From positions 3,530 through 67,529 of the forward strand of contig JAFTKO010000012.1 in assembly GCA_017453205.1 (NCBI GenBank): DNA of 64,000 bases, written 5' to 3'. The translations under genes and the position numbers were made by a program. The stretch is from Clostridia bacterium (lineage in GTDB: Bacteria; Bacillota; Clostridia; Oscillospirales; CAG-272). The notes beneath the pieces were generated by a model that was given only the letters and a program-made list of their open reading frames with translations, was not told the DNA's origin and did not search any database. Of this stretch, positions 3,457-60,752 are shown in pieces (position 1 is the first letter of the stretch; each line of letters opens with the position of its first letter).

Positions 3457-4377
3457 ATGAATATTTTGCATATGAAATATGCGGTTGAGGTTGCAAAGCT
3501 CGGTTCGCTGAACAAAGCGGCAGAGACCTTGCTGATCGCTCAGCCGAATATCAGCCGCTCGATCAAGGAGCTGGAAGCCGACCTCGGTATCACTATTTTT
3601 AACCGTTCTGCCAAAGGAATGGTAATGACTCCCGAGGGCGAGGAGTTTATCGGTTACGCGCAGGAGATATTAAAGCAGATCGATCAAGTGGAAATGATCT
3701 ACAAAAAGGGAACCCCCAAAAAGCAGAAGTTTTCGATTTCCGTACCGCGTGCTTGCTATATTTCCGCGGCGTTTGCGGAGTTTTCCAAGTGCTTGAATGC
3801 GGACCCGGCGGAGGTCTTTTATAAGGAGACCAACTCTCAGCGGACGATCCACAACGTATTGAACAGCGATTACAAGCTGGGCATTATCCGTTATGCCGAA
3901 AACTATGACAGATACTTTAAACTGATGCTGGAGGAAAAAGGGCTCTGCTATGAAATGGTTGCCGAGTTCTCCTATGTGCTGATCATGAGCCGCAAGCACC
4001 CGCTGGCAGAGAAAAAAGAGATCACCTTTGACGATCTTCCGCCTTATATCGAGATTGCGCATGCCGACCCGTATGTGCCGTCCCTGCCGCTTGCCAAGGT
4101 GGTAAAGGAGGAGCTGCCCGACAACATTGACCGCCGTATTTTCATTTTTGAGCGTGCAAGTCAGTTCGATCTGCTTTCCGAAAACCCCGAGACCTTTATG
4201 TGGGTGTCTCCCGCCTCGCAAAAGGTGTTGGATCGCTATGATTTGGTTCAAAGAAAGTGCGTGGACAATAAAAAGGTGTATAAGGATGTTTTGATCTACC
4301 GAGAGGGGTATAAGCTTACCAAGCTGGACAAGCAGTTTATCACCGACCTTTGCGAGTCCAAGCGCAAACATTTATAA
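3457..4377 (+). CDS. LysR-family transcriptional regulator
   Basis: GSLNKAAETLLIAQPNISRSIKELEADLGITIFNRS LysR HTH, 306 aa, RBS ggagg. Confidence 0.95.
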   Translation: MNILHMKYAVEVAKLGSLNKAAETLLIAQPNISRSIKELEADLGITIFNRSAKGMVMTPEGEEFIGYAQEILKQIDQVEMIYKKGTPKKQKFSISVPRACYISAAFAEFSKCLNADPAEVFYKETNSQRTIHNVLNSDYKLGIIRYAENYDRYFKLMLEEKGLCYEMVAEFSYVLIMSRKHPLAEKKEITFDDLPPYIEIAHADPYVPSLPLAKVVKEELPDNIDRRIFIFERASQFDLLSENPETFMWVSPASQKVLDRYDLVQRKCVDNKKVYKDVLIYREGYKLTKLDKQFITDLCESKRKHL

Positions 4378-44133: not shown

Positions 44134-45486
44134 ATGAGCATCAAGAACGAATATCTGGCAAAGGTCATGCAAGACGTGATCAAGCGCAACCCCGGTGAGC
44201 CCGAGTTCCATCAAACAGTCAGCGAAGTGCTGGAGTCCTTGGAGCCTGTGGTGGAAAAGAGCCCCGAGTTTATCGAAAAGGGTGTCATCGACATGATCGT
44301 TGAGCCCGAGCGTATCATCAAATTCCGCGTTCCGTGGGTGGATGATCAAGGCAAGGTTCAGGTCAACCGCGGTTACCGTATCCAGTTTAACAGCGCGATC
44401 GGTCCTTACAAGGGTGGCTTGCGTTTCCATCCCTCGGTCAACGAGAGCATCATCAAATTCCTCGGATTTGAGCAGACCTTTAAAAACTCTCTCACCTCGC
44501 TCCCCATGGGCGGCGGTAAGGGCGGTTCCGACTTTGATCCGCAGGGCAAATCCGATGCAGAGGTCATGCGTTTCTGCCAAAGCTTTATGACCGAGCTTTC
44601 CAAGCACATCGGCGCAAATACCGATGTTCCCGCGGGTGATATCGGTGTCGGCGCACGTGAAATCGGTTATCTGTACGGTCAGTACAAGAGACTGCGCAAT
44701 GAGTTTACGGGCGTTCTTACTGGTAAGGGACTTCCTTACGGCGGTTCTTTGATCCGTCCCGAGGCGACCGGCTACGGCGCGGTTTACTACACCGTAGAGA
44801 TGTTGAAGTATTTCAAGGACGATATCAAGGGCAAGACCTTTGCCATTTCCGGCTTCGGTAACGTGGCTTGGGGTACGGTCAAGAAGGTCAATGAGCTGGG
44901 CGGTAAAGTGGTTACCATTTCCGGTCCCGACGGCTATATCTACGATCCCGACGGTGTCAGCACCGAGGAAAAGGTCAACTTCATGCTCGAGATGCGCGCT
45001 TCTTGCCGCAACAGAGTGCAGGACTATGCCGATAAGTTTGGCGTACAGTTCTTCCCGAAGGAAAAGCCTTGGGGCGTTAAGGCAGACATTATCATGCCTT
45101 GCGCAACGCAGAACGAGGTTGGTATGGAAGAGGCAAAGAAGATCGTTGCCAACGGCATTAAGTACTACGTGGAGGTCTCCAATATGCCCACCACCAATGA
45201 GGCAGTTGCCTACCTCAAGGAGAACGGCGTCATTGTTGCTCCCTCCAAGGCAGTTAACGCAGGCGGCGTAGCGGTTTCCGGACTTGAGATGTCTCAAAAC
45301 TCCATGCGTTACAGCTGGACTGCAGAAGAAGTCGACGCAAAGCTGTACACCATTATGGCGAACATCTTTAAGGCATCGATCGATGCGGCTCATGAGTACG
45401 GCTTGGGCGATGACTTGGTATCGGGTGCGAACATTGCGGGCTTCCTCAAGGTTGCAAAAGCAATGCTGGCTTACGGCGTTGTCTGA
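44134..45486 (+). CDS. gdhA: NADP-specific glutamate dehydrogenase
   Basis: GPYKGGLRFHP, MGGGKGGSDF, DVPAGDIG, RPEATGYG. Confidence 0.97.
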   Translation: MSIKNEYLAKVMQDVIKRNPGEPEFHQTVSEVLESLEPVVEKSPEFIEKGVIDMIVEPERIIKFRVPWVDDQGKVQVNRGYRIQFNSAIGPYKGGLRFHPSVNESIIKFLGFEQTFKNSLTSLPMGGGKGGSDFDPQGKSDAEVMRFCQSFMTELSKHIGANTDVPAGDIGVGAREIGYLYGQYKRLRNEFTGVLTGKGLPYGGSLIRPEATGYGAVYYTVEMLKYFKDDIKGKTFAISGFGNVAWGTVKKVNELGGKVVTISGPDGYIYDPDGVSTEEKVNFMLEMRASCRNRVQDYADKFGVQFFPKEKPWGVKADIIMPCATQNEVGMEEAKKIVANGIKYYVEVSNMPTTNEAVAYLKENGVIVAPSKAVNAGGVAVSGLEMSQNSMRYSWTAEEVDAKLYTIMANIFKASIDAAHEYGLGDDLVSGANIAGFLKVAKAMLAYGVV

Positions 45487-45507
45487 TTTTCAAAATTTAT
45501 ATTTTAC

Positions 45508-45537
45508 AAGACCACCGAGCGATCGGTGGTCTTTTTT
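45508..45537 (+). terminator. Terminator after gdhA
   Basis: aagaccaccga...tcggtggtctttttt. Confidence 0.85.
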
Positions 45538-45667
45538 ACGCATTTCAATTCCTGTCCGTTCTTCCATGCAAAAATCCTTGATTTTTGTACAACGATATGT
45601 TATAATGATATCAGATAACAACAAATACGCTTTGAAACGCTTTTTTGAAAGGGGATTTTATCGGACT

Positions 45668-46639
45668 ATGAAACACGTGTTTGTGATCAATCCCGCGTCG
45701 GGAAAGGAAAACTCATTTGAGACCATCAAAAACGCACTGGAGGCAATGCAGACGCCCGTGGATTATGAGCTTTATGAAACACAGGCACCGGGAGACGCCA
45801 CGGCGTATATCCGTGAGTATTGCCGCGATTGTACCGATTCTGTACGCTTTTACGCTTGCGGCGGTGACGGAACGCTCAATGAGGTTGTCAACGGCGCGGT
45901 CGGCTTTGCACATGCAAGCGTGGGGTGTTATCCTTGCGGCTCGGGGAATGATTTTGTCAAGTATTACGGTGGAAAAAAAGCCTTTTTGAACATACACGAA
46001 TTGTTGGATGCTGACGAGGAGACCATCGATTTGATGCGCGTGGGGGGCAAATATGCCGTGAACGCCACGCATTTCGGCTTTGACTCCTGCGTGGCAAAGA
46101 CGATGATGAATGTTCGCCGTAAAAAGCTGATCGGCGGCAAAAACGCATATACCACAGGCGTTGTTGTGGGTCTGTTTAAGGCGATGAAAAACAAATGTAA
46201 GGTATGGGTGGACGGTGAACTGATCAATCCCGCGGGCAACATCCTGCTTTGCACAGTTGCAAACGGACAGTACGTAGGGGGCTCTTTCCGCTGTGCGCCG
46301 CGTTCACTTGACAACGACGGGCTGCTGGAGGTCTGTTTGGTTCGCCCCGTTTCGCATTTGACCTTTCTTTCCATGATGAAAGAGTACGGCAAAGGTACCC
46401 ACCTCGATCATCCCAAACTCCAAAAATATTTGGAGTATCGCCGTGGTAAAAGCGTGACGGTGGAGGCGCCCGAGGGATTTGTTTACGCTGTGGACGGTGA
46501 GTTGGTCGCGCAAAACCGCTTTACGGTGGAGGTTGTACCCGACGCGCTCCGTTTTGCCGTGCCCAAAAGTGCAAGCCCTTTGATCGGTGAGACACATGTC
46601 CCGCACACCGTCGGAGCGAAAGAAAGCGTTTGGGTCTGA
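45668..46639 (+). CDS. Diacylglycerol/lipid kinase family protein (YegS/DgkB-like)
   Basis: VINPASGK, CGGDGTLNE, GSGNDF, NGQYVGG, VDGE. Confidence 0.9.
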   Translation: MKHVFVINPASGKENSFETIKNALEAMQTPVDYELYETQAPGDATAYIREYCRDCTDSVRFYACGGDGTLNEVVNGAVGFAHASVGCYPCGSGNDFVKYYGGKKAFLNIHELLDADEETIDLMRVGGKYAVNATHFGFDSCVAKTMMNVRRKKLIGGKNAYTTGVVVGLFKAMKNKCKVWVDGELINPAGNILLCTVANGQYVGGSFRCAPRSLDNDGLLEVCLVRPVSHLTFLSMMKEYGKGTHLDHPKLQKYLEYRRGKSVTVEAPEGFVYAVDGELVAQNRFTVEVVPDALRFAVPKSASPLIGETHVPHTVGAKESVWV

Positions 46640-49558: not shown

Positions 49559-49612
49559 AACAGTTTTAAGGGCGCGGGGAGAGGAACTTTTTTCAAAAAG
49601 TTCCTCTCCCCG
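49559..49612. repeat. REP-like palindrome, family A
   Basis: aacagtttt...cggggagaggaacttttt-tc-aaaaagttcctctccccg. Confidence 0.72.
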
Positions 49613-49831
49613 AAAAATATTTGTTCTTCTTGCCAATAATTCCCGATTTTCCTTGCATTTTGCGGTATTTTCCGCAAAAAAGTCGCAAAAAAATTAAAAT
49701 TTTTTTCCTCAATCTTATTGATTATATGCGAAAGATGTGGTACAATATTACTATATAACCGAATTTTTCGGAAAAAGTTCATTTTTGAGGGACTTTGGAC
49801 GGCAAATTTGACGGAACGGAGGGCGAAAACC

Positions 49832-52702
49832 TTGCAATATTCACTATTATTCACTTCTGCATTCGGCGTGGGATTGACCAACACGGGATTTTTGGTCGCC
49901 ATCGCGGTACTTGCATGTATTTTGGGTGCCGAGGTCGCCGGCATTTGTATCCTAATCAGTAAAATGTCGCGCGCACGCAGAGCCGAGTTGGAACGCGAAC
50001 AGTCGGATGAGGACAATGACGGCTCATCTACCTATCGCAACTATGCCGCGGCGGCTGTCTTTTTCTTCGGTGCCATTCCGAAAGCCTCCTACATCGCACT
50101 GACTGTGCTTGCCGCACTCGCGGCGGTTGCGGCGGTCTTGTTTGTAGTGCTTTTGATTATCTTCCGCGCACGCGGATATGATTTTGCGTCATCGGCTTGG
50201 TATCAAGCGGCACAGGCACAGGATCGCGAACGCAAGTCCGAGCCGGAAGAGATTCCCGAGGCGAAAAATGAGGAACCTGTTTATGCCGTAGCGGAGGAGA
50301 CTTTGCCCGACGAGAGCGAGGAACAGCGACAAGAGGCGTACACCGAGATCGAACAAACGCCCGCAGAGGAAGAGCCTTTTGCTATGTTCGCTGAGGAGCC
50401 TCAAGAGGCTTACGACGAACAAAACATACAGGAGGACACGCAAGAAACGGAGCCCCCCGCCCCGATAGAGGAAGTGTTTGTTGCAGAACCTGTGACCCGG
50501 TCGGTGGATATGACACCCGTACAGCCTGCCGCCGCGACGACTACCGTGACCACTGTGCGCGAGGAACCCGCGTTTGCCGACGGTTCCCAGCCTTATAAGG
50601 TTGTGGAAAAGGTTGTGACCGAGACCTTTAAAGAGGTTTATACCGAAACGCCCAATACTGCACAGCCGCAGGCCGCCGCAACGTCAACCAACGACGCTGT
50701 TCTTGAAAAGTTGGTCGATCTTTTGGACTATGAGATCCGCAACCGCCGTGAGAACGAGCGCACCGAGAACGCAAAAAACGATCAGAATGATGAGGAAAAG
50801 AAAAAGGGAAGCATTGCCACCTTTGCAAAGACCGATCTCCCCGCCGATGAGGATGAGGACGACGAGGATGAAAATGAGGAAGACGACGAGCTTGATACCG
50901 ACGAACGCGATGAGTTGAAAAACGGCGAGGATGATGACCGTGACGATGAGGAAAACGACACCGACGGCGATCATTTTACCGGAAACGAGCGCATCATCGG
51001 CTTTGACGAGGATACGGGATGCTATATCGTGGCGCATTACCGCAAGAGCTTTGAGGCAAAGCTCATCCAATCGCGTCCCAATATCAAAAAGTATTACAGC
51101 GATCTCAAAAACGCACTGCTTTCCTATAAGGGTACCAAGAGCCGTATCAGTTGGACGGCAGACAGTTTCCACAACGGTCGCACGCAGATTGCAAAGATCA
51201 ATGTCAAAACACGTATTTTGGAGCTTTATCTCGCGCTGGATCCCGCCACACTGGAGGGAACCGTCTACCGAGGCAAGGATGTGAGCAGCAAAAAGAAATA
51301 TGCCGACACGCCCTTCCAGTACAAGCTCCGCACGCCCCGAAAGTTCAAATGGGCAATGGAATTGGTACAGCGTGTATGTGAGGAACAAGGTCTCTCTCCC
51401 ATTGACATTGAGCATGTCAATTACGACGAACAGTATCCCTTTGATACCACCGATAATCTGGTGGCGCGTAAGCTGATCAAGGAGTATATCCGTGAGGAAA
51501 AGCCCGCCACGACTTTTGAGCTGGCGCCCGATCATGTTCCTGCCGTTCCCGACGAGGACGACAGCGTCATCCCCGCCAACGCAAACTTCTCTTGGGAGTT
51601 TGATAACGAGCGTATGCCCGAGCCCGAACCCGAGCCTGTTCCGGAGCCGGAGCCTGTTCCTGCACCCGAGCCCGAGCCGGAATCGATTCCCGAGCCGGAG
51701 CCTACACCGGCGCCCGCTCCCGAACCTACGCCCGCGCTTGCACCGCAAGCATCAATTAAGCGTGAAACGGTGAAGGTGACCGAGATGCGTTACACCGAGC
51801 GTTATTATAATGATGCAAAACCGACCTACGAACAGGTCATTACCACAACCGAGCCGATCGAGGCGATTGCAGTTCCCGCAGACGAGCCCGAGAAAGCCCC
51901 CGCCGCACAGGAACCCGAAACGATCAAGATCGATATCGAAGAACCCGTGATCGATCTTGCAGAGGAAACTCCCGAGATGTCTGTTGTTGAGGACGTTGCT
52001 GAGCAGTCCGAAGAGGAGGAGACCGTAGCGGCTGTGGCCATGACCGCACCCGTAGCAAAGTCCGAGGCGGAGGTCGATGAGATCGATGATGAGATCGACG
52101 AGGAACGCTTCTTTGACGATGCTCCCGCCGAAGCTCCTGTGGAGACACCCGCCGAGACGGAAGCTTATGAGGAGCCCGAACAGCCCGTTGAGGCGATACA
52201 GGAACAAGAAAATAACGCGTTGCCGTTCCGTCCGTCGTATTATGCAAACCGCAATTACTACGAGGAAAATGACAGCGCGGAACAGACCGAGGAAATCTCC
52301 GAAGAGAACGGTGAGCAATCCGAGGAGACTGTATATGAGGAAGAACCCGAATACACGGAGGAACCCGAGGGGGATGCCACATATGAGGAAACGACCGAGT
52401 ATGTGACCGAAACCGAGCCTGTCCCCGAGGAATACGTGGAGTCACCCAAACCTGCGGTCAACATCAATCCCTCGGTGGCAGTGGTGGATATCTGTTCCTT
52501 GGAAGAGCATTTTCCGGCGGGGGCTGTCATCAATCTTGATACTCTCAAGGCACGTGACTTGGTACTGCCGTCGGCGACAGTGCTTAAGATCTACGCCGGT
52601 GGAACACTTTCCAAAGCATTTACAGTAGAAGCAAATCATTTTACCCTTGACGCTATCAAAGCCATCAGCGATGCCGACGGGGATTCCGTGATGGTGCGGT
52701 AA
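49832..52702 (+). CDS. Large acidic membrane protein with central globular domain and C-terminal ribosomal uL15-like domain
   Basis: TTG start after ggaggg; N-terminal hydrophobic segments; basic domain YRKSFEAKLIQS...YLALDP; PE repeats; C-terminal LKIYAGGTLSKAFTVEANHFTLDAIKAISDADG resembles uL15. Confidence 0.8.
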   Translation: MQYSLLFTSAFGVGLTNTGFLVAIAVLACILGAEVAGICILISKMSRARRAELEREQSDEDNDGSSTYRNYAAAAVFFFGAIPKASYIALTVLAALAAVAAVLFVVLLIIFRARGYDFASSAWYQAAQAQDRERKSEPEEIPEAKNEEPVYAVAEETLPDESEEQRQEAYTEIEQTPAEEEPFAMFAEEPQEAYDEQNIQEDTQETEPPAPIEEVFVAEPVTRSVDMTPVQPAAATTTVTTVREEPAFADGSQPYKVVEKVVTETFKEVYTETPNTAQPQAAATSTNDAVLEKLVDLLDYEIRNRRENERTENAKNDQNDEEKKKGSIATFAKTDLPADEDEDDEDENEEDDELDTDERDELKNGEDDDRDDEENDTDGDHFTGNERIIGFDEDTGCYIVAHYRKSFEAKLIQSRPNIKKYYSDLKNALLSYKGTKSRISWTADSFHNGRTQIAKINVKTRILELYLALDPATLEGTVYRGKDVSSKKKYADTPFQYKLRTPRKFKWAMELVQRVCEEQGLSPIDIEHVNYDEQYPFDTTDNLVARKLIKEYIREEKPATTFELAPDHVPAVPDEDDSVIPANANFSWEFDNERMPEPEPEPVPEPEPVPAPEPEPESIPEPEPTPAPAPEPTPALAPQASIKRETVKVTEMRYTERYYNDAKPTYEQVITTTEPIEAIAVPADEPEKAPAAQEPETIKIDIEEPVIDLAEETPEMSVVEDVAEQSEEEETVAAVAMTAPVAKSEAEVDEIDDEIDEERFFDDAPAEAPVETPAETEAYEEPEQPVEAIQEQENNALPFRPSYYANRNYYEENDSAEQTEEISEENGEQSEETVYEEEPEYTEEPEGDATYEETTEYVTETEPVPEEYVESPKPAVNINPSVAVVDICSLEEHFPAGAVINLDTLKARDLVLPSATVLKIYAGGTLSKAFTVEANHFTLDAIKAISDADGDSVMVR

Positions 52703-52716
52703 GGAGGTCGTAAACC

Positions 52717-55700
52717 ATGTTGAAAAAAATCTATCAAAAACTTGCGCTTGCGGCGGTGCTCCTGCTGACTGTGGCGGCAATGCTCGGCACGGTCATTCAA
52801 GCCGCATCCACTGACGTATATGTTGTGACCATTGATTACAAAACAAGCGAGTGCACGGTTACGGTTACGGTGGACGGCAAAGTGCTTTCCGCAAATGACG
52901 GAACTGCGGGAGAGTATCATATTCCCAAAAACCATGCCACGGTTTCTATTCAAATCATTCCCAAAATCGGCTATGAGGTTTCTGCATTGACCGATCGGGA
53001 GACCAACAAGGCGTTGGTTTCCTCCAATACCGACGGTGATACTTATGAGCCGATTTTGACCAAGGATATGAACTATTATGTGACCGGTACTGCAAAAAAC
53101 TATACCATCAAGGAAATTGCTGCTGCAGGTATGACACATACCGAGGTGTTTGGTACCATGGAGTATCAATACGATTCCGAAGAGACGGTCAGCCTTCCGA
53201 TACCGACACTGGAAGGGTACAATTTTACCGGTTGGAAGATCTATGACAATGCCGATGTTTCCTTTCAGCTCAGTACAATTACGGGCAATGCGGTCATCTT
53301 TCCCACCAGCAGTTATCCTACCGTAGGGGATGTTTTGTTTGCCGAGCCGATGTGGGTAGGAACGCCTCAGCCTGTGACGCGCCTTGACCTTGAGTACGGT
53401 TCGACGATCCCCGTCAACTACGGCAACAACGGTGTGGTATATACCACAACCTGGCAAGAGCCCAACGGTACAACGGGTATTACCGGTCTTGACGGAAATG
53501 ACACCGATGCCGATCTCAACAAAGCGGGGACTGTGAAAGCGACCTTTGATGAAGAAGGCTACAAGATGTATGTCGGTTATGAGCCTTTTGCCAAGTATGC
53601 CTCGAACTCCGAGTATTACTCGCAGCTTGCAAAGGTAAAAACCGATGCCGATGCCAATAAGATTTATCGCTACTATACCCCAATCACGTATATTTTGACT
53701 TACGAGGGAATCGGCGATACAAGCGCATATCCCAAAACACATGTATATAATACAGAAACATCGTTTGAAAAGCTTCAGCCCGAAAAGGTCGGTTATATTT
53801 TTGCCGGTTGGAAGGTCTATATCGTGAAAAACGATGAACGAGTTGATGTTACCTCACAAATCAACTCGGAAGTTACCGTGATTAAAAACCTTAAGCTGGA
53901 AGCCCGCGAGATGTGTCTTGCCGAGGGTAATACTGCCAACGAGATCATTCTTGAAGCTAACTGGACTCCCGAGACCTATGGCATCACCTACGATTGGGCA
54001 TGCACCGACACGGTTGAGTTTGATACCGACAAATATGGTGAGATCGTTTATGACAGTGTACTTGAGATTACAGAGTTGCCCGTGCGTGTTGGCTACAACT
54101 TTGAGGGATGGACATTAACAACCGCAGATGATAAGACCGAAACGATTTCGGTAGAGGACGGCAAAACCGTGATCTATGGAAAATACGCGTCGGATATTAC
54201 ACTGACAGCTGTTTGGTCTCCCAAAAAGTTTGCCGTTACCTTGGATGGCAACGGCGCCGACAGTACCGATCATACCGCGAGTATTGAGGCAACCTTTGAC
54301 GCGGCGCTGACACTTCCCACCGATTTTAAGGCGCCCTCGCGCGTGGGTCATACTTTCCTTGGATATTCGCTTGACAAAGACGGGACAACGCTTTATATCA
54401 AAGCCGATATCAATGAGGACGGGTCTGTAACGCTGACAAGCTTGGTAGACCAATGGAAGATCGATGAGGATACCACGCTTTACGCGCAATGGAGCGTCAA
54501 TTCCTACAAGGTAACTGTAGATATCGATACGGAAAACACCACCGTTACCATCATCGATGCCGATGAAAACGGCAGATATGATTACGGTGAGGAGATAACG
54601 ATCCGTATTGAGGTGCTCAACAAATACAAGCTGGTCAAGTGGGAGGGTGCTGCGGTCGATCACACCACGACCTACGAGTATAAGTTTACACTCGGTCCCG
54701 AAGATCGCACCTTGACGGGCGTGGTTTTGCCTGCCGAAACGGTTCCCGCGTTTGTGATCGATTATATCAAAGAAGTGATTACCACCGACACAGGGGTCAT
54801 TCGTGACGGTCATTATCTGATTACTTGCGACGGTGAGCAATCACTTGATGTGGTCGTTAATAAAGGAATGATCTCTGTCAATGGCGCCAATCCCAAATCT
54901 ACGCTTTCCATACCCGAGGCCTACTTTGGAAAAAACTTGAAGATTTTGGTTTACGGTGTGGACGGTAATACTGCGAACAGCGATGTGATCAGCCTAACCG
55001 TGGAAGCAAGGCCGGCAATGCCCGAAATGAACACCGCCACTGCCGAAATTAAGCACGTTTATCAGTATGAGGAGACGCAGATCGTAATCGAAATGACCGA
55101 TCTTTCGGCATTGAGTCAATATGAATTTGCTTGCTCCGAGAATGCCGACAGCACAGGTCTTACTTGGTGGAGCGTTGCAAATGCCGACGAACGCTATTTT
55201 GTGGTTTCCGAGGACGGGAAGGTCATGTTTGTCAATCTAAAGCCCGGTGCTTCCTATTATGTTTTTGTGCGTGTCAAGGCTGTAGAGGATGATCATGCCC
55301 ACGGTGTGGAGTTCCGTACAGATATTGACACCCACTCCGACAACACGTTGGAGGCAAAGAAGAACGCAATGCTCGATCTGATCACGGATACCGACGGCGA
55401 AATGGTCAAGGCATTGATCGATCAAGCCATCAAGGATGCAAACGAGCTTGTCAGTCCTTCGCCCGATTTCTACAACAACCTTGAAGCCATCTATAACCGA
55501 GTACTTGCGGGAATTGAGTTTGCAAGAACACAGGACGCGCGTATCGCGGAATTGAAAGCATTGCAAGACAGCTTGATCGCAAGCGGGGAATTTAGCAACG
55601 ACAATGTAAACCTCATCAACAATATTTGTGAGGCGGCGGTTCAGACCGTTAAGAATGCGACTGCGGTCGAAAATGTTCAAAGCGCATATGAGAGCGGCAT

Positions 55701-57312
55701 GTCGCAAATGAGAGCTGTTCCCGTCACGTATTTGGTTTACGGTGACATGGAGCTGACCGCAAAAGACGGACTCGATCAAGGAACCACGCTTTATCAGGAT
55801 CGCAACAGCAACATTGCCGATTTGACCAATGCGGTGGATACCGCTATCCAAACAGGAAAATTTGCTTATGGCGGCAGTGCGATGACACAAGCACAGGTTG
55901 CCGAGGCGCTCAAGTCTCTTGACGTGATGGCGGCATATCAAATGCGTCTGACCGATGCCCAAAATGTGACCGTAACGCCCGACGGTAAGTTTGTTATTCG
56001 TTTGCTCCTGCCCAATGAGCTGCGCAATGTGAGCGGCTTGCAGGTTGCTTACTACAATGAAAAGACCGGTGAGCTTGAGGTGTTGGACACCGAAAAGGAC
56101 GGCAACTGTGTGGTATTCTATGCTTCTCACATTGACGATTTTGTGATCCTCGGCGATCCCACTATGAATTTGACCGGATTTATTGTGGCGCTTGGATTGA
56201 TCCTTGCTTGCCAGTTGATCGGTATCATTTTGCTGTTGGCGCGCCGTGCAAAATATGCAAAGAGCGTTCGCCGTTACAGCTTGGCATTGCCCGCACTGCT
56301 GACCATTCGCTTCCTGCCCGATAACGGCATGACGATTTTGTTTGTACTGGGCGGATTGGTCGTGTTGTTCCAAATCGTCCTAATGTATCTCTTGCTTTCC
56401 TCTGAGGTGGTCTATCACCAAAAGCATAAGCGCCGCAACGAGAACAAGCAGGCGCCCGCCGAGGATGTTCCCGCGATGGCGGAACAGCTTGAGGAGAGCT
56501 ATAACGAGTCCTCTTACGGCGAAACGACTGTCGTGCTGACCGCTTTGCCCGAGGAACACGCGGAGGAAGAGGCGGATGAGGAGCTCGAGGATACAGAGGA
56601 TGACACGGATAGTGACCGTGCACTTTCCGAAGAGGACGCTGTCGAGCAGACCGAAGAGGATATGGAAATGTCCGATGAGGTGTATGAAGAAGCGGTAGCC
56701 GAGGATGCTGAGGCTTATGACGATTTCATCGAGCCTGCCGCAAATCCGCGCTATTCTTTGCCCGACGAGGCATTTGAAGGCTATGCCGTCAACGATGAGT
56801 TGACCGAGGAAGAGCTCCCCGCCGACGAAGAATATGCCGCCGACGAGACTTACACCGAGGACACCTCCGATGAAGTCGAGACAACCGCATGGGACTATGA
56901 TGACGAAGCCACAGCCGAGACCGAAGAGGGCTCCGAGTGGCAAGAGGAGTCTGCCGAATGGCAATATGACGAAAGCCCCGAAGACATCGAGGATGGTTCG
57001 ACACAGGCGTTTGACACCGAGACTTACGACACCGAAGCATATGCTGAGAACGGGGAGTATATACAAACCGAGGAGGTCTATTCCGAGGACGGTGAGTACG
57101 CCGAGACCGAGGAAGTCTATGCCGAGGATGGTGCATATTCCGAAGCGGAGGACGTTGAAGCATATGCCGAAGCCGATGTCTACGACGAGAATTCCGAGTA
57201 TGATGAAAATGCGGTATACGATGAAAATGCCGTATATGACGAGACCGAGGAAATTCCAGCCGACACCGACGAGGACGAAGAGCCCAAACCATATGACGGT
57301 TACGAAGAATAA
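52717..57312 (+). CDS. Large cell-surface protein with InlB B-repeat-like domains, membrane module and very acidic C-terminal tail
   Basis: Signal peptide; repeated P.(L/K/R).GY.F.GW motifs; helical region; TM module near aa 1150-1235; E/D/Y-rich tail. Confidence 0.85.
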   Translation: MLKKIYQKLALAAVLLLTVAAMLGTVIQAASTDVYVVTIDYKTSECTVTVTVDGKVLSANDGTAGEYHIPKNHATVSIQIIPKIGYEVSALTDRETNKALVSSNTDGDTYEPILTKDMNYYVTGTAKNYTIKEIAAAGMTHTEVFGTMEYQYDSEETVSLPIPTLEGYNFTGWKIYDNADVSFQLSTITGNAVIFPTSSYPTVGDVLFAEPMWVGTPQPVTRLDLEYGSTIPVNYGNNGVVYTTTWQEPNGTTGITGLDGNDTDADLNKAGTVKATFDEEGYKMYVGYEPFAKYASNSEYYSQLAKVKTDADANKIYRYYTPITYILTYEGIGDTSAYPKTHVYNTETSFEKLQPEKVGYIFAGWKVYIVKNDERVDVTSQINSEVTVIKNLKLEAREMCLAEGNTANEIILEANWTPETYGITYDWACTDTVEFDTDKYGEIVYDSVLEITELPVRVGYNFEGWTLTTADDKTETISVEDGKTVIYGKYASDITLTAVWSPKKFAVTLDGNGADSTDHTASIEATFDAALTLPTDFKAPSRVGHTFLGYSLDKDGTTLYIKADINEDGSVTLTSLVDQWKIDEDTTLYAQWSVNSYKVTVDIDTENTTVTIIDADENGRYDYGEEITIRIEVLNKYKLVKWEGAAVDHTTTYEYKFTLGPEDRTLTGVVLPAETVPAFVIDYIKEVITTDTGVIRDGHYLITCDGEQSLDVVVNKGMISVNGANPKSTLSIPEAYFGKNLKILVYGVDGNTANSDVISLTVEARPAMPEMNTATAEIKHVYQYEETQIVIEMTDLSALSQYEFACSENADSTGLTWWSVANADERYFVVSEDGKVMFVNLKPGASYYVFVRVKAVEDDHAHGVEFRTDIDTHSDNTLEAKKNAMLDLITDTDGEMVKALIDQAIKDANELVSPSPDFYNNLEAIYNRVLAGIEFARTQDARIAELKALQDSLIASGEFSNDNVNLINNICEAAVQTVKNATAVENVQSAYESGMSQMRAVPVTYLVYGDMELTAKDGLDQGTTLYQDRNSNIADLTNAVDTAIQTGKFAYGGSAMTQAQVAEALKSLDVMAAYQMRLTDAQNVTVTPDGKFVIRLLLPNELRNVSGLQVAYYNEKTGELEVLDTEKDGNCVVFYASHIDDFVILGDPTMNLTGFIVALGLILACQLIGIILLLARRAKYAKSVRRYSLALPALLTIRFLPDNGMTILFVLGGLVVLFQIVLMYLLLSSEVVYHQKHKRRNENKQAPAEDVPAMAEQLEESYNESSYGETTVVLTALPEEHAEEEADEELEDTEDDTDSDRALSEEDAVEQTEEDMEMSDEVYEEAVAEDAEAYDDFIEPAANPRYSLPDEAFEGYAVNDELTEEELPADEEYAADETYTEDTSDEVETTAWDYDDEATAETEEGSEWQEESAEWQYDESPEDIEDGSTQAFDTETYDTEAYAENGEYIQTEEVYSEDGEYAETEEVYAEDGAYSEAEDVEAYAEADVYDENSEYDENAVYDENAVYDETEEIPADTDEDEEPKPYDGYEE

Positions 57313-57326
57313 CTGTGAATATTAAA

Positions 57327-57647
57327 TTTAGGGGGAAGAAAAGCTTCATGTAAGAGCTTTTCTTCCCCCTTGAGATTGTAGAAAACTAACGAGTTTCGTC
57401 AGTTTGCTGAAAGTTTTGGTCGAGCTTTTTCAAAAGCTCGCGCAGTGGAGGGCGCGGAGCCCTCCTCGCGCTCCGCAGAGCGCGAAATCACTTCTTCGGC
57501 GCTTTCTTTTTGCAAGCTTTTTCTTTGCGCCTATATGGTCAAAGAAAAAGCGACTAAAGGCTTTGTGCAATTTGACATTTTTGTACCTTTGGTCTACACT
57601 CTGAGGGGGAAGAAAAGCTCTTACATGAAGCTTTTCTTCCCCCTAAA
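57327..57647. mobile_element. MITE-like non-coding element with 44-bp perfect terminal inverted repeats enclosing family B copy 2
   Basis: 57327-57370 is the exact reverse complement of 57604-57647; interior 57410-57577 matches 38528-38696. Confidence 0.6.
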
Positions 57648-58572: not shown

Positions 58573-60537
58573 TTATTCCCAAATGGTAGGAACACCATCA
58601 ACATAGTGCCAATAGTTACCGTTTTCTGCCGGTTGAGTTTCGGAATAAAAATACACTGTTGCTCTTTTCAATATAGAGCTTTCTTCACTGATACTAATGG
58701 CTGACCATTCTATTTCTTCACCTGTGTAATATACTTCTTTTATTTCATTGCAAAGATAAAAGGTTTGTTGCAGAACCGAGATAATGCTAACAGGCAGAAC
58801 TATTTTTTCCAGTTTACTACAGCCGCGAAATGAGTTGTATATGCTTTCAACAGTATCTGGAATAATTATCTCTGTTATATTCATTTCATAAAAGGCATAC
58901 CACCCTGTGTTTATAAGTCCTTTAGGAAGGTCAATTTGTTTAACAGATGTACAGTAATAAAAGGCATAGTTCCCTATATACTTAGTGTTTGGGGAAAGGA
59001 TGATTTCTTCAAGATTATCACAATTATAGCAAATATAGTTAGGAATTTTCGTTAAATTTTCGCCAAACACAATTTTTTTGATTCCTTCATTTTTTATAAA
59101 TGTTCCACCCTCGGGAGGAGCATATGAAGAATCATAATATACAGTCGTAAGAGATTCACAACCTAAAAATATTTGGGAGCCTATGTGTGTTACATTGGCA
59201 GGGATTCTTATTTCTGTAATGCCAACACACTTATAAAAAGCTTTGTTTGCAATATCTGTTACTGTTTTGGAAATATATATGTTCTTTATATGAGCAAGGT
59301 TTTCAAAAACTTTTTCTCCGATCGCGGTTACTTTGTATCCGTCGATATATGCTGGGATGTAGATATCTTCATCTTCACAGGTTCCTATTCCTATTATCGT
59401 ACAAGTTGTGGCATCATCATTTACTTTGTACGCAAGTCCGGTAGATCCTATCGCATCTGTATATGAATCAATATAGTTGTCACCACAAACCGTACAAATA
59501 TGTGTAGTATATCCGTCCTCTGTTTTGGTCGGTTCGGTTATAACGCTTTCGTACTTATGCAAAGAGTCATAATCATATGTATATGTACCACTCGACACAT
59601 CGTAATAGCAAGAGAAGCCATACCCCGTTGTTGTATCTATATTTATAAAAATTGTGTGATACAAACCGGACATCAAATATACTGTTTGAGTTGTACTCCA
59701 ACTTCCATCATAACTTACATAGGTCTCAGGATAAATACTTGATATGTTTGACCCATATATGTCATGAACCACAACAACTGCGTTAGCATCAAGGTGCTCA
59801 CTACCACAGCCTATGATATTAACTGTTAACGAATATATGTAGCAGTACCCTCCATTAACATATGCACTTCCAATGGAGGTAAGCGATATGGAACAAGACA
59901 TGTTATCCCAACTTGTAGTTTTGCTATATGTACATTTTTTGCACTTGTATTCATCGTATCCATTTTCCAAACAAGTGGTAGGGCAAGATGTGATATAAAT
60001 TGAATGTCCGGTAGCAACGATGGTATCTGTCTTAATAGTTGCCGAGCATACGGAGCAGACTTGGTGCTTACTTCCGTCCTCGGTACAGTTAGCTTCTTTG
60101 TCGGTAATCCACTCGCCGTCGGTGTGGCTGGCAGGAATGTTATTTTGTGCTATGAGAGTTTCGGAACACCGAGAGCAATGCTTGCCCTCGGTTTTACCAT
60201 CTGTGGTACAGGTAGCCGCTACGGCATTGTCGATAACCTCAACGTGACCAAGAGCACCAATTTTCTGCGTTTCCTTTTCACCGCAAGAACAAGAGCGTTC
60301 TTTTTCGCCCTCATCGATGCAAGTTGCGTCCTTGACAGTTTCCCATTCACCAAAAGTGTGAATATGGGTATTAGGTTCTTTTGTTTCATCCGTTGTGTGC
60401 TCTCCGTCAGTATCGGATGGTTGCTGTGTAGATTGCTCATTGCCGATAGATGGCTGATCTGTTCCGTTATCACAAGCAGAAAAAGCGAATACACAAACCA
60501 ACATCAAAATAAGTGCAAGCCATAAAGAATTTTTCAT
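58573..60537 (-). CDS. BspA/TpLRR leucine-rich-repeat lipoprotein with Cys/His repeats
   Basis: Lipobox FSAC; ATC...G...C..C repeats; [12 protein letters not shown]-type LRRs; visibly AT-rich. Confidence 0.88.
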
Positions 60538-60551
60538 CGTCTTTTCCTCCA

Positions 60552-60752
60552 AGATAAAAAAGGTGTACCCCAATCAAGAGATACACCGAAAAACGCATCT
60601 TCGATTGTTGCTACACGAATCGACACCACATTACGAGAAATGCAGAAAATGAGCATGCGTTTTTACCAAAAAAATAAAAACACATCCTCGTAAAAGGTGT
60701 TATGCAATTCGTGTAGCATGATTATTATATCATACTTTTTATAATTTTGCAA
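60552..60752 (-). promoter_or_regulatory. Promoter plus long structured leader with intrinsic terminator ahead of LRR gene
   Basis: TTGCAA-17-TATAAT (60752-60724); 12-bp stem 60609-60620/60707-60718; terminator ggtgtatctc...gggtacaccttttt just before RBS ggagg. Confidence 0.65.

Follow-up and report, generated by a model that had tools for sequence, protein, structure and literature searches.

Adjacent genes in uncultured Clostridia encode a repeat-bearing surface protein and a uL15-like protein that share a membrane module and may be halves of a split surface protein

Introduction

The described systems closest to the locus considered here are the InlB B-repeat surface proteins, the sortase-anchored LPxTG proteins, the bitopic ToxR/CadC regulators and RsgI-type anti-sigma factors, and the ribosomal protein uL15. 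The locus is a pair of adjacent genes, here called A and B, within a 64,000-nucleotide stretch (the window) of contig JAFTKO010000012.1 from the genome of a Clostridia bacterium (assembly GCA_017453205.1, positions 3,530 to 67,529). Gene A encodes a membrane-anchored protein that ends in a uL15-like domain, and gene B, directly downstream, encodes a large repeat-bearing protein that is predicted to be exported. With a probability of roughly 0.55, we propose that a type I transmembrane surface protein has been split between A and B, whose homologous membrane modules would bring the halves back together.

Each of the known systems can be compared with part of the pair. Protein B shares its repeats with the InlB B-repeat surface proteins, and differs from them by a three-segment membrane module and a 286-residue acidic tail that is predicted to be cytoplasmic. 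Proteins anchored through LPxTG motifs by sortases end in one hydrophobic helix and a short basic end, in place of which B has the module and the long tail. The last ~70 residues of A resemble the globular C-terminal domain of uL15, the product of rplO, but uL15 is a small soluble protein encoded in a ribosomal operon, whereas A is membrane-anchored and encoded outside such an operon. The central domain of A resembles in its fold, with no sequence match, the YjbR/MmcQ (DUF419) proteins, the YdhG-like (DUF1801) proteins and the "double-wing" of T4 MotA. The ToxR/CadC regulators and RsgI-type anti-sigma factors tie sensing outside the cell to a cytoplasmic output, which is the same logic as that proposed here; however, their N-terminus lies inside, opposite to the orientation proposed for A and B, and their outputs are a winged helix or an anti-sigma domain.

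A further likeness, by analogy, is to the receptor and adaptor pairs of immune cells that involve DAP12, FcR gamma or CD3 zeta. In these pairs a ligand-binding chain is joined by a chain that is nearly devoid of an ectodomain and has a long cytoplasmic part, and each partner has a conserved polar residue in the middle of its transmembrane (TM) helix, as do A and B. The immune pairs are eukaryotic, unrelated in sequence and held by acid–base pairing, whereas the residues in A and B are Glu and Gln and their contact is putative.

The original prediction, made from the DNA alone, knew of no described system with this layout. In a full-text literature search, which did not cover subscription journals, we found no publication on such proteins, and in this respect the claim stands; the layout is, however, not unique to this locus, and appears to be the split form of a larger uncharacterised family. 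What seems to be new is the two-chain form, the definition of the module as a unit, the recognition that the central domain recurs as a second cytoplasmic unit, and the statistics of linkage between the two genes.

Results

Architecture of the two proteins

The genes are co-oriented on the forward strand and lie 14 bp apart, and their open frames and stop and start positions agree with the layout first described for them (Table 1). The start codon of gene A is TTG, 9 nt downstream of a GGAGG sequence. Its stop codon, TAA, occupies positions 52700–52702 and is abutted by a second GGAGG, and the ATG of gene B follows 9 nt beyond. The pair is predicted to be a two-gene, co-translated operon. The contrast originally drawn between the two proteins also holds: B has a large ectodomain of about 1,100 residues (~32–1148) and an acidic tail, whereas A has only ~17 residues ahead of its first TM helix (TM1) and carries folded domains, the central and the uL15-like one, beyond its membrane module.

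The ectodomain of B contains at least four InlB B-repeats, with the repeat signature at residues 167, 359, 459 and 544. It matches PF09479 in four stretches (47.5 bits; cut-off 27) and TIGR02543 at 33.2 bits (cut-off 20.95). The N-terminus of B resembles a signal peptide, with a hydrophobic segment at residues 5–32. A motif search of B found no LPxTG, and a sortase substrate was rejected for this reason. A cleaved C-terminal sorting signal was also rejected, since many module proteins carry long folded tails beyond the module.

The shared membrane module

Both proteins carry the same three-segment module, as the original prediction had proposed, consisting of TM1, a basic loop, a short hydrophobic stretch that bears a proline, a last TM helix, and basic residues. 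In A, TM1 (residues 18–42) contains Glu34 and is followed by a basic and acidic loop (43–71), a short hydrophobic stretch (72–83) ending in Pro83, and the last TM helix (87–111), after which comes R-A-R-G-Y-D-F. In B, the corresponding parts are TM1 (1153–1175) with Gln1166, the basic loop (1176–1187), the short stretch (1188–1204) with Pro1192, Arg1198 and Pro1201, and the last TM helix (1205–1228) with Gln1219, again followed by basic residues. At the buried polar position halfway along TM1, 109 of the 121 A proteins have Glu and 8 have Gln; all 125 B-family proteins have Gln there, as do 9 of the 52 distant module proteins, in which Glu is the commoner residue (43). The proline past the short hydrophobic stretch is found in 101/121 A, 125/125 B-family and 50/52 distant proteins.

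Profile comparisons indicate that the likeness of the two modules exceeds shared hydrophobicity, one of the grounds on which the original prediction might have failed. When 121 A modules were aligned with 41 B modules using hhalign, the match covered 70 columns, ran from TM1 to the last helix, and had a probability of 81.6–89.2% (E 1e-5 to 2e-6). As a control, the columns of B were permuted 150 times inside each of six segments, so that the hydropathy layout was kept. None of the 150 shuffles reached the real score of 39.3 (shuffle mean 17.7, standard deviation 3.3, maximum 28.8), and the reversed B module scored 19.1.

Module sequences from other proteins point the same way. The B-module profile retrieved 196 proteins at E <= 1e-3 from 1.84 billion representatives, and the A-module hidden Markov model (HMM) matched 14/210 module proteins at E < 1e-3. 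We built a third-party HMM from the 52 most distant module sequences, which included no A-family and no close B-family sequences. Searched against the 15,576 six-frame open reading frames of 60 aa or more in the own genome of the pair, this HMM found B first (E 1.9e-26) and A second (E 9.7e-6, residues 21–109). With hhalign, the A modules matched the 52 distant modules at 92.9% (E 3.8e-7), and all 177 modules at 94.7% (E 6e-8).

The alternative that the modules are two hydrophobic hairpins of similar layout, and not homologues, draws on the weak pairwise BLASTP alignment of A and B (23% identity over 116 columns, E 0.005) and on the lack of significance in direct HMM matches between the two families. 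Given the shuffling result, the detection of A by a profile that contains neither family, and the alignment of the prolines and of the Glu/Gln position, we consider this alternative extremely improbable. On these comparisons we take the homology of the A and B modules to be established, with good though not overwhelming confidence.

Single-chain relatives

Fused forms, in which an ectodomain, a module or other anchor and a uL15-like domain share one polypeptide, had been put forward as something to look for, and they do occur in other Clostridia. Twelve matches of 1695–3018 aa came from a search for longer proteins that contain the central domain. All 12 have a signal-peptide-like start, an ectodomain of 1000–2300 residues, and one TM helix followed by lysine and arginine (K/R); ten carry two central domains and two carry one. 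PF00828, the uL15 family, was found at the extreme C-terminus of 5/6 of these long single-TM proteins that were scanned.

The full module also occurs on one chain with a uL15-like domain in 33 of the 150 B-module-profile matches listed, and 6 of these 33 carry the central domain too. In one example of 3901 aa, the module (residues 3467–3565), the central domain (3612–3808) and the uL15 domain (3825–3896) follow one another. About 23 of the 27 proteins with the module and the uL15-like domain only, among the matches listed, start like signal peptides, judged by eye. Such proteins appear at NCBI under the labels "uL15 family ribosomal protein" and "InlB B-repeat-containing protein".

Thus, a single chain elsewhere holds the parts that are divided between A and B, and these relatives would link A and B functionally. 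The single-chain family has the same module or a single TM helix, the central domain, a C-terminal PF00828 domain, acidic leashes, a signal peptide and a large ectodomain. In the A/B pair, by comparison, ectodomain and cassette (the central and uL15-like domains with their linkers) are split onto two chains, each with its own module, and the tail of B has lost both folded domains. At the A/B loci themselves the parts are never all on one polypeptide, being split in 39/39 loci.

Other proteins with the central domain were observed in addition. A second one is encoded on one chain in the same genome, outside the window (C14:259159-262899, + strand); it has a signal-peptide-like start, an ectodomain of ~500 aa, one TM helix (residues 540–577), a 400-aa acidic leash and a central domain at 993–1156, with no uL15-like end. 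At three loci a third gene, which is absent from the window, follows B (L019:13524-14633, L021:16356-17450 and L023:8861-9922). Its product is soluble, ~360 aa long and without TM helices, and consists of a basic N-terminal part, an acidic linker and a central domain. Similar small frames lie beside B in further genomes of the genus.

Topology

The placement of the tails in the cytoplasm, as originally predicted, is the one that best fits the single-TM relatives and the TM-free proteins with the central domain. In the single-TM fusions, the central and uL15-like domains lie on the side of the membrane opposite to the exported ectodomain. The central domain is also found in proteins that have neither a TM helix nor a signal-peptide-like N-terminus, namely frames of 354–370 aa (L019, L021 and L023) and an 888-aa frame (L053). 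K/R clusters follow TM1 and the last TM helix in A and B alike, and the uL15 fold is otherwise cytoplasmic. There is thus a strong case, on predicted features, that the central and uL15-like domains of A and the tail of B are cytoplasmic.

A cytoplasmic cassette together with an exported ectodomain implies that the module crosses the membrane an odd number of times. The short Pro-ended stretch and the last helix could either be the second and third crossing or form a re-entrant hairpin.

In a different topology, the acidic tails and the folded domains of A would be extracellular parts of a wall-associated structure, and the module would be a hairpin with its loop inside. The final hydrophobic stretch of ~41 residues could form a single long helix that starts inside and ends outside, and the low-confidence model of the module leaves the number of crossings unsettled. 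This topology is nevertheless very unlikely in view of the domain placement in the single-TM fusions, the TM-free proteins, the K/R clusters past the last TM helix and the cytoplasmic nature of the uL15 fold.

Co-occurrence of the two genes

The genes co-occur and stay adjacent, as had been anticipated. We scanned one genome per species and obtained 51 A loci, all of them in metagenome-assembled genomes of uncultured Clostridia, Oscillospiraceae or Eubacteriales. More than ~620 bp follow a full A in 39 of these loci; in every one of them, A is directly followed on the same strand by a B homologue that has the ectodomain and the module, and the two genes abut or overlap. Among the remaining loci, 11 end at or just past A and one (L053) is a paralogue with the central domain only. 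At two loci a frameshift or stop divides B into two frames (L003, 12869-16472; L046, 7384-12009), which may reflect assembly error or decay.

Within the genus of the window, the B module was found in 68 and the central domain in 76 of 78 species genomes. With canonical A defined as a central-domain match at E <= 1e-100, the 78 genomes divide into 62 with the pair, 9 with neither gene and 7 with a single one (A in 1, B in 6). Among the 24 of high quality, every genome is concordant (both in 22, neither in 2, either gene alone in 0). All seven discordant genomes are less than 90% complete, and in those inspected (G335, G347 and G365) the gene lies close to the end of a contig.

Sampling beyond the genus covered 300 other genomes from the order, none of which yielded the B module and 1 of which yielded the central domain; of 399 other genomes sampled from the class, 6 yielded the central domain. 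A genome of another genus in the same family (G195) encodes a 1106-aa frame with three copies of the central domain (C11:33445-36288, - strand); it has five central-domain matches in total and no B-type module.

Cytoplasmic parts of A and B

The uL15-like end of A matches PF00828 at 36.5 bits (cut-off 21.5) and shares 33% identity with the C-terminal half of the genome's own uL15 in a MAFFT alignment. BLASTP gave no alignment between the last 88 residues of A and that protein; we rely on the uL15 assignment despite this because of the MAFFT identity and the significant Pfam score. Against the full-length rplO equivalog TIGR01071, A scores 24.7 bits (cut-off 77.95) and covers only model positions 72–141 of 144, and it has no counterpart of the Gly/Arg/Lys-rich N-terminal extension of uL15. 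The domain appears to retain the core of the fold and not the lysines. The true rplO of this genome encodes 148 aa and lies on contig C11, away from the A/B locus; it is followed by a 440-aa gene that we take to be secY. A was therefore rejected as a ribosomal protein, on the grounds of a TIGR01071 score far below the cut-off, a true rplO elsewhere, replaced lysines and a membrane-anchored product of 956 aa.

The central domain has a folded core at approximately residues 386–556. Among 31 members searched against Pfam at E <= 10, no family rose beyond noise (best E 0.02), and none of the 31 gave a sequence match to YjbR/MmcQ (DUF419) or YdhG-like (DUF1801) families; no relative was found among PDB chain sequences (best E 1.1). 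An AlphaFold model based on 31 sequences has a predicted local distance difference test score (pLDDT) of 79.9 and a predicted template modelling score (pTM) of 0.70. Its top fold match is YjbR (2fki; Z 8.3, root-mean-square deviation 2.8 over 95 aa, Foldseek E 8.5e-3), followed by DR2400/DUF419 (2a1v, Z 7.8), a YdhG-like protein (9t2w, Z 7.4), the T4 MotA C-domain (5jlt, Z 6.4) and frataxins (Z 5–6.7). The model, with modest scores, suggests a YjbR/YdhG-like fold class; we name only the class because the scores lie in a commonly seen range. Among these fold matches, DNA binding has to our knowledge been shown solely for MotA. The neighbours of the central domain in a protein atlas are unnamed clusters (0.91–0.92), and clusters of DUF5655 and DUF3788 (0.82–0.85) that serve as leads only.

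The linkers of A are strongly acidic, with a net charge of -59 over residues 126–379. Within these disordered linkers are four short, near-invariant blocks, after residue 254 and at 577–592, 645–660 and ~798–811 (approximate window positions 50594-50656, 51560-51607, 51764-51811 and 52223-52264), which look like docking motifs. The tail of B consists of 286 aa, of which 41% are Asp or Glu, and has a net charge of -114. Of 30 aligned homologues, 24 preserve its 16-residue motif and another 3 come close to doing so. An hhalign comparison of the B tail with the cytoplasmic part of A gave a probability of 0.1%, so that no trace of the central or the uL15-like domain can be recognised in the tail. 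The best pair in that comparison, which was not significant, matched the A block at 577–592 with a Trp-Asp-Tyr-Asp-Asp stretch in the B tail.

Two functional assignments that these parts might invite can be considered here. An anti-sigma factor or a ToxR-like regulator was rejected, as Pfam and NCBIfam searches found no winged-helix or anti-sigma domain in A or B, and no sigma factor or regulator is adjacent to the pair. Alternatively, A could be a dedicated helper in the membrane insertion, placement or turnover of B, binding transiently to its module or tail motif. The central domain is the sole basic soluble part of A or B (isoelectric point 9.15), the tail of B is extremely acidic and holds a conserved motif, and the two proteins are predicted to be co-translated, all of which would suit a helper. 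The same cassette is, however, a permanent part of the surface protein in the fused relatives, and no chaperone or insertase family in Pfam or NCBIfam matches A, so that we regard this role as unlikely.

Genomic context

Table 1. Positions of the features of the A/B locus in the window
Feature	Position	Strand	Description
Promoter-like site 5' of gene A	49718-49746	+	TTGATT, 17 nt, TACAAT, with TG; consensus match only
Shine-Dalgarno GGAGG of gene A	49818-49822	+	read from sequence
Gene A	49832-52702	+	956 aa; membrane module, acidic linkers, central domain, uL15-like end
A membrane module	49877-50185	+	residues 16-118
A acidic linker 1	50207-50953	+	residues 126-374; two short conserved blocks
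A central domain	50954-51616	+	residues 375-595; highly conserved
A linker 2	51617-52468	+	residues 596-879; Pro/Glu-rich and acidic, net charge -73; two short conserved Tyr-rich blocks
A uL15 C-terminal-like domain	52484-52684	+	PF00828; residues 885-951
Shine-Dalgarno GGAGG of gene B	52703-52707	+	abuts gene A stop codon
Gene B	52717-57312	+	1531 aa; signal peptide, repeat ectodomain, membrane module, acidic tail
B signal-peptide-like N-terminus	52717-52809	+	~residues 1-31
B InlB B-repeat (Listeria-Bacteroides repeat) region	53134-54726	+	~residues 140-670
B membrane module and preceding conserved strand	56107-56436	+	residues 1131-1240
B acidic Tyr-rich tail	56452-57309	+	residues 1246-1531
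16-residue motif in B tail	56722-56769	+	residues 1336-1351
Terminator-like hairpin	57331-57369	+	19 nt past gene B stop; 15-bp G+C-rich stem, 9-nt loop

The features of the locus are listed in Table 1. A scan of the sequence for promoters and terminators gave counts no higher than in shuffles, and the hairpin past gene B was missed by the terminator scan because of its weak T-run. An exact reverse complement of this 39-nt hairpin is found 236 nt beyond it, at 57605-57643, just past the end of the gene next to B, which encodes an HlyIII-family protein on the opposite strand. The same element thus closes both convergent genes, and another G+C-rich hairpin (49576-49611), similar in type to that past B, closes the gene upstream of A.

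The neighbours of the pair encode a lipid kinase, an FGGY kinase, the HlyIII-family protein, a BspA-type leucine-rich-repeat protein and two proteins without a family; among these neighbours in the window, no regulator, sigma factor, sortase or secretion gene adjoins the pair. The sole recurrent neighbour is the YegS/DAGK-type lipid kinase gene (45284-46636, + strand in the window), which lies upstream on the same strand in 34/51 loci, at 110–3782 bp from the A frame, and is directly adjacent to the pair in L051 and L052. The BspA-type surface protein (58576-60573, - strand; PF13306, 149.8 bits) is encoded in the sole block of low G+C content in the window (0.38, compared with ~0.50).

Discussion

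We propose that the A/B pair derives from a parental layout like that of the single-chain relatives. The parent would have been one chain with a signal peptide, a large variable ectodomain, an anchor (the three-segment module or a single helix) and an acidic disordered leash, then usually one or two basic YjbR/YdhG-like domains, and at the C-terminus a copy of the globular half of uL15. B would retain the exported InlB B-repeat ectodomain, followed by the module and by an acidic tail that holds a single short conserved motif, while A would retain the module, with an N-terminus of ~17 residues outside, and the entire cytoplasmic cassette. The two modules would then pack together in the membrane, with the buried polar residues of TM1, Glu34 in A and Gln1166 in B, as a putative contact; polar residues within TM helices drive helix association. 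The rejoined pair would rebuild the single-chain layout, in which a surface-binding part outside is tied to the cytoplasmic cassette. We have moderate confidence that A and B form a physical heteromer. A complex prediction for A 1-130 and B 1138-1250, made with an alignment for each, scored 0.00, with the partner's own fold uncertain, and bears on binding in neither direction. As a weak guess, the partner of the cassette might be a protein or RNA, and not the ribosomal site of the true uL15.

A number of observations weigh against this proposal. When the own genome is searched with the A-module HMM, B comes second, yet only at E 0.2, and A is absent from the matches to the B-module HMM at E <= 10. 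Of 210 module proteins examined, 148, mostly of the B family, have neither a central nor a uL15-like domain, and giants with the module only exist (up to 4210 aa, with tails of 6–16 residues), so that the module can act as a plain anchor. The A module is nearer to the modules of proteins that unite module and central domain, with or without uL15 (E 8e-9 to 3e-8), than to those of the B family (best 7.9e-5); the pair is thus neither a simple fission nor a recent tandem copy, and two paralogous full-length genes with reciprocal loss are, from these similarities, a more likely history than clean fission. The structure model of the B module has three helices, and its confidence (pLDDT 64, pTM 0.36) is too low for crossings or an interface to be read from it. 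The uL15-like domain of A is acidic (net charge -4), with several lysines of the true uL15 replaced. The best fold matches of the central domain are mutually consistent, yet their scores are in a range that the tool calls common. Finally, the host organisms are uncultured.

Some of these points would also fit linked paralogues that work apart, with B as an anchored surface adhesin and A as a membrane-tethered cytoplasmic protein, and no complex between them. On this account, the many giant surface proteins anchored by the module alone, with no cassette and almost no tail, the single-chain protein on C14, which needs no partner, and the closeness of the A module to the fused-protein modules would be expected. 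We consider it possible but doubtful. Against it stand the strict order of abutting or overlapping genes in 39/39 loci, the 24 high-quality genomes with both genes or neither, and single-chain relatives that unite precisely what is shared out between A and B; in both modules, moreover, the polar and proline residues are conserved far beyond the need of a passive anchor.

The original prediction had read the pair as a heteromeric receptor/transducer. This is supported in part, by the homology of the modules, the co-occurrence of the genes and the cytoplasmic placement of the tails. The nucleic-acid-binding output in that reading is conjectural, given the replaced lysines of the uL15-like domain and the modest YjbR-like fold match of the central domain. 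A stronger version of the reading, a receptor-plus-adaptor pair joined by a Glu–Gln contact in the membrane, in which binding by the ectodomain is passed to a cassette acting on RNA, ribosomes or DNA, seems to us rather unlikely. If true, it could operate, for example, through local control of translation or through release of the cassette by cleavage, and would add a kind of signalling route that is not known from bacteria.

The split of one surface protein into two rejoining halves, which remains our preferred account, bears on the family as a whole. A copy of a core ribosomal-protein domain is found at the inner end of large surface proteins in abundant uncultured gut Clostridia, and the database labelling of these surface proteins as ribosomal is a recurrent annotation error that is corrected here. 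Two conserved units without a Pfam entry, the module and the central domain, are now defined. The A/B split would be a natural dissection of the family, in which the outside part is separated from the inside part; it points to the module, with its one buried polar residue, as the likely joining piece, and through this pair the role of the cytoplasmic uL15-like tail becomes a testable question.

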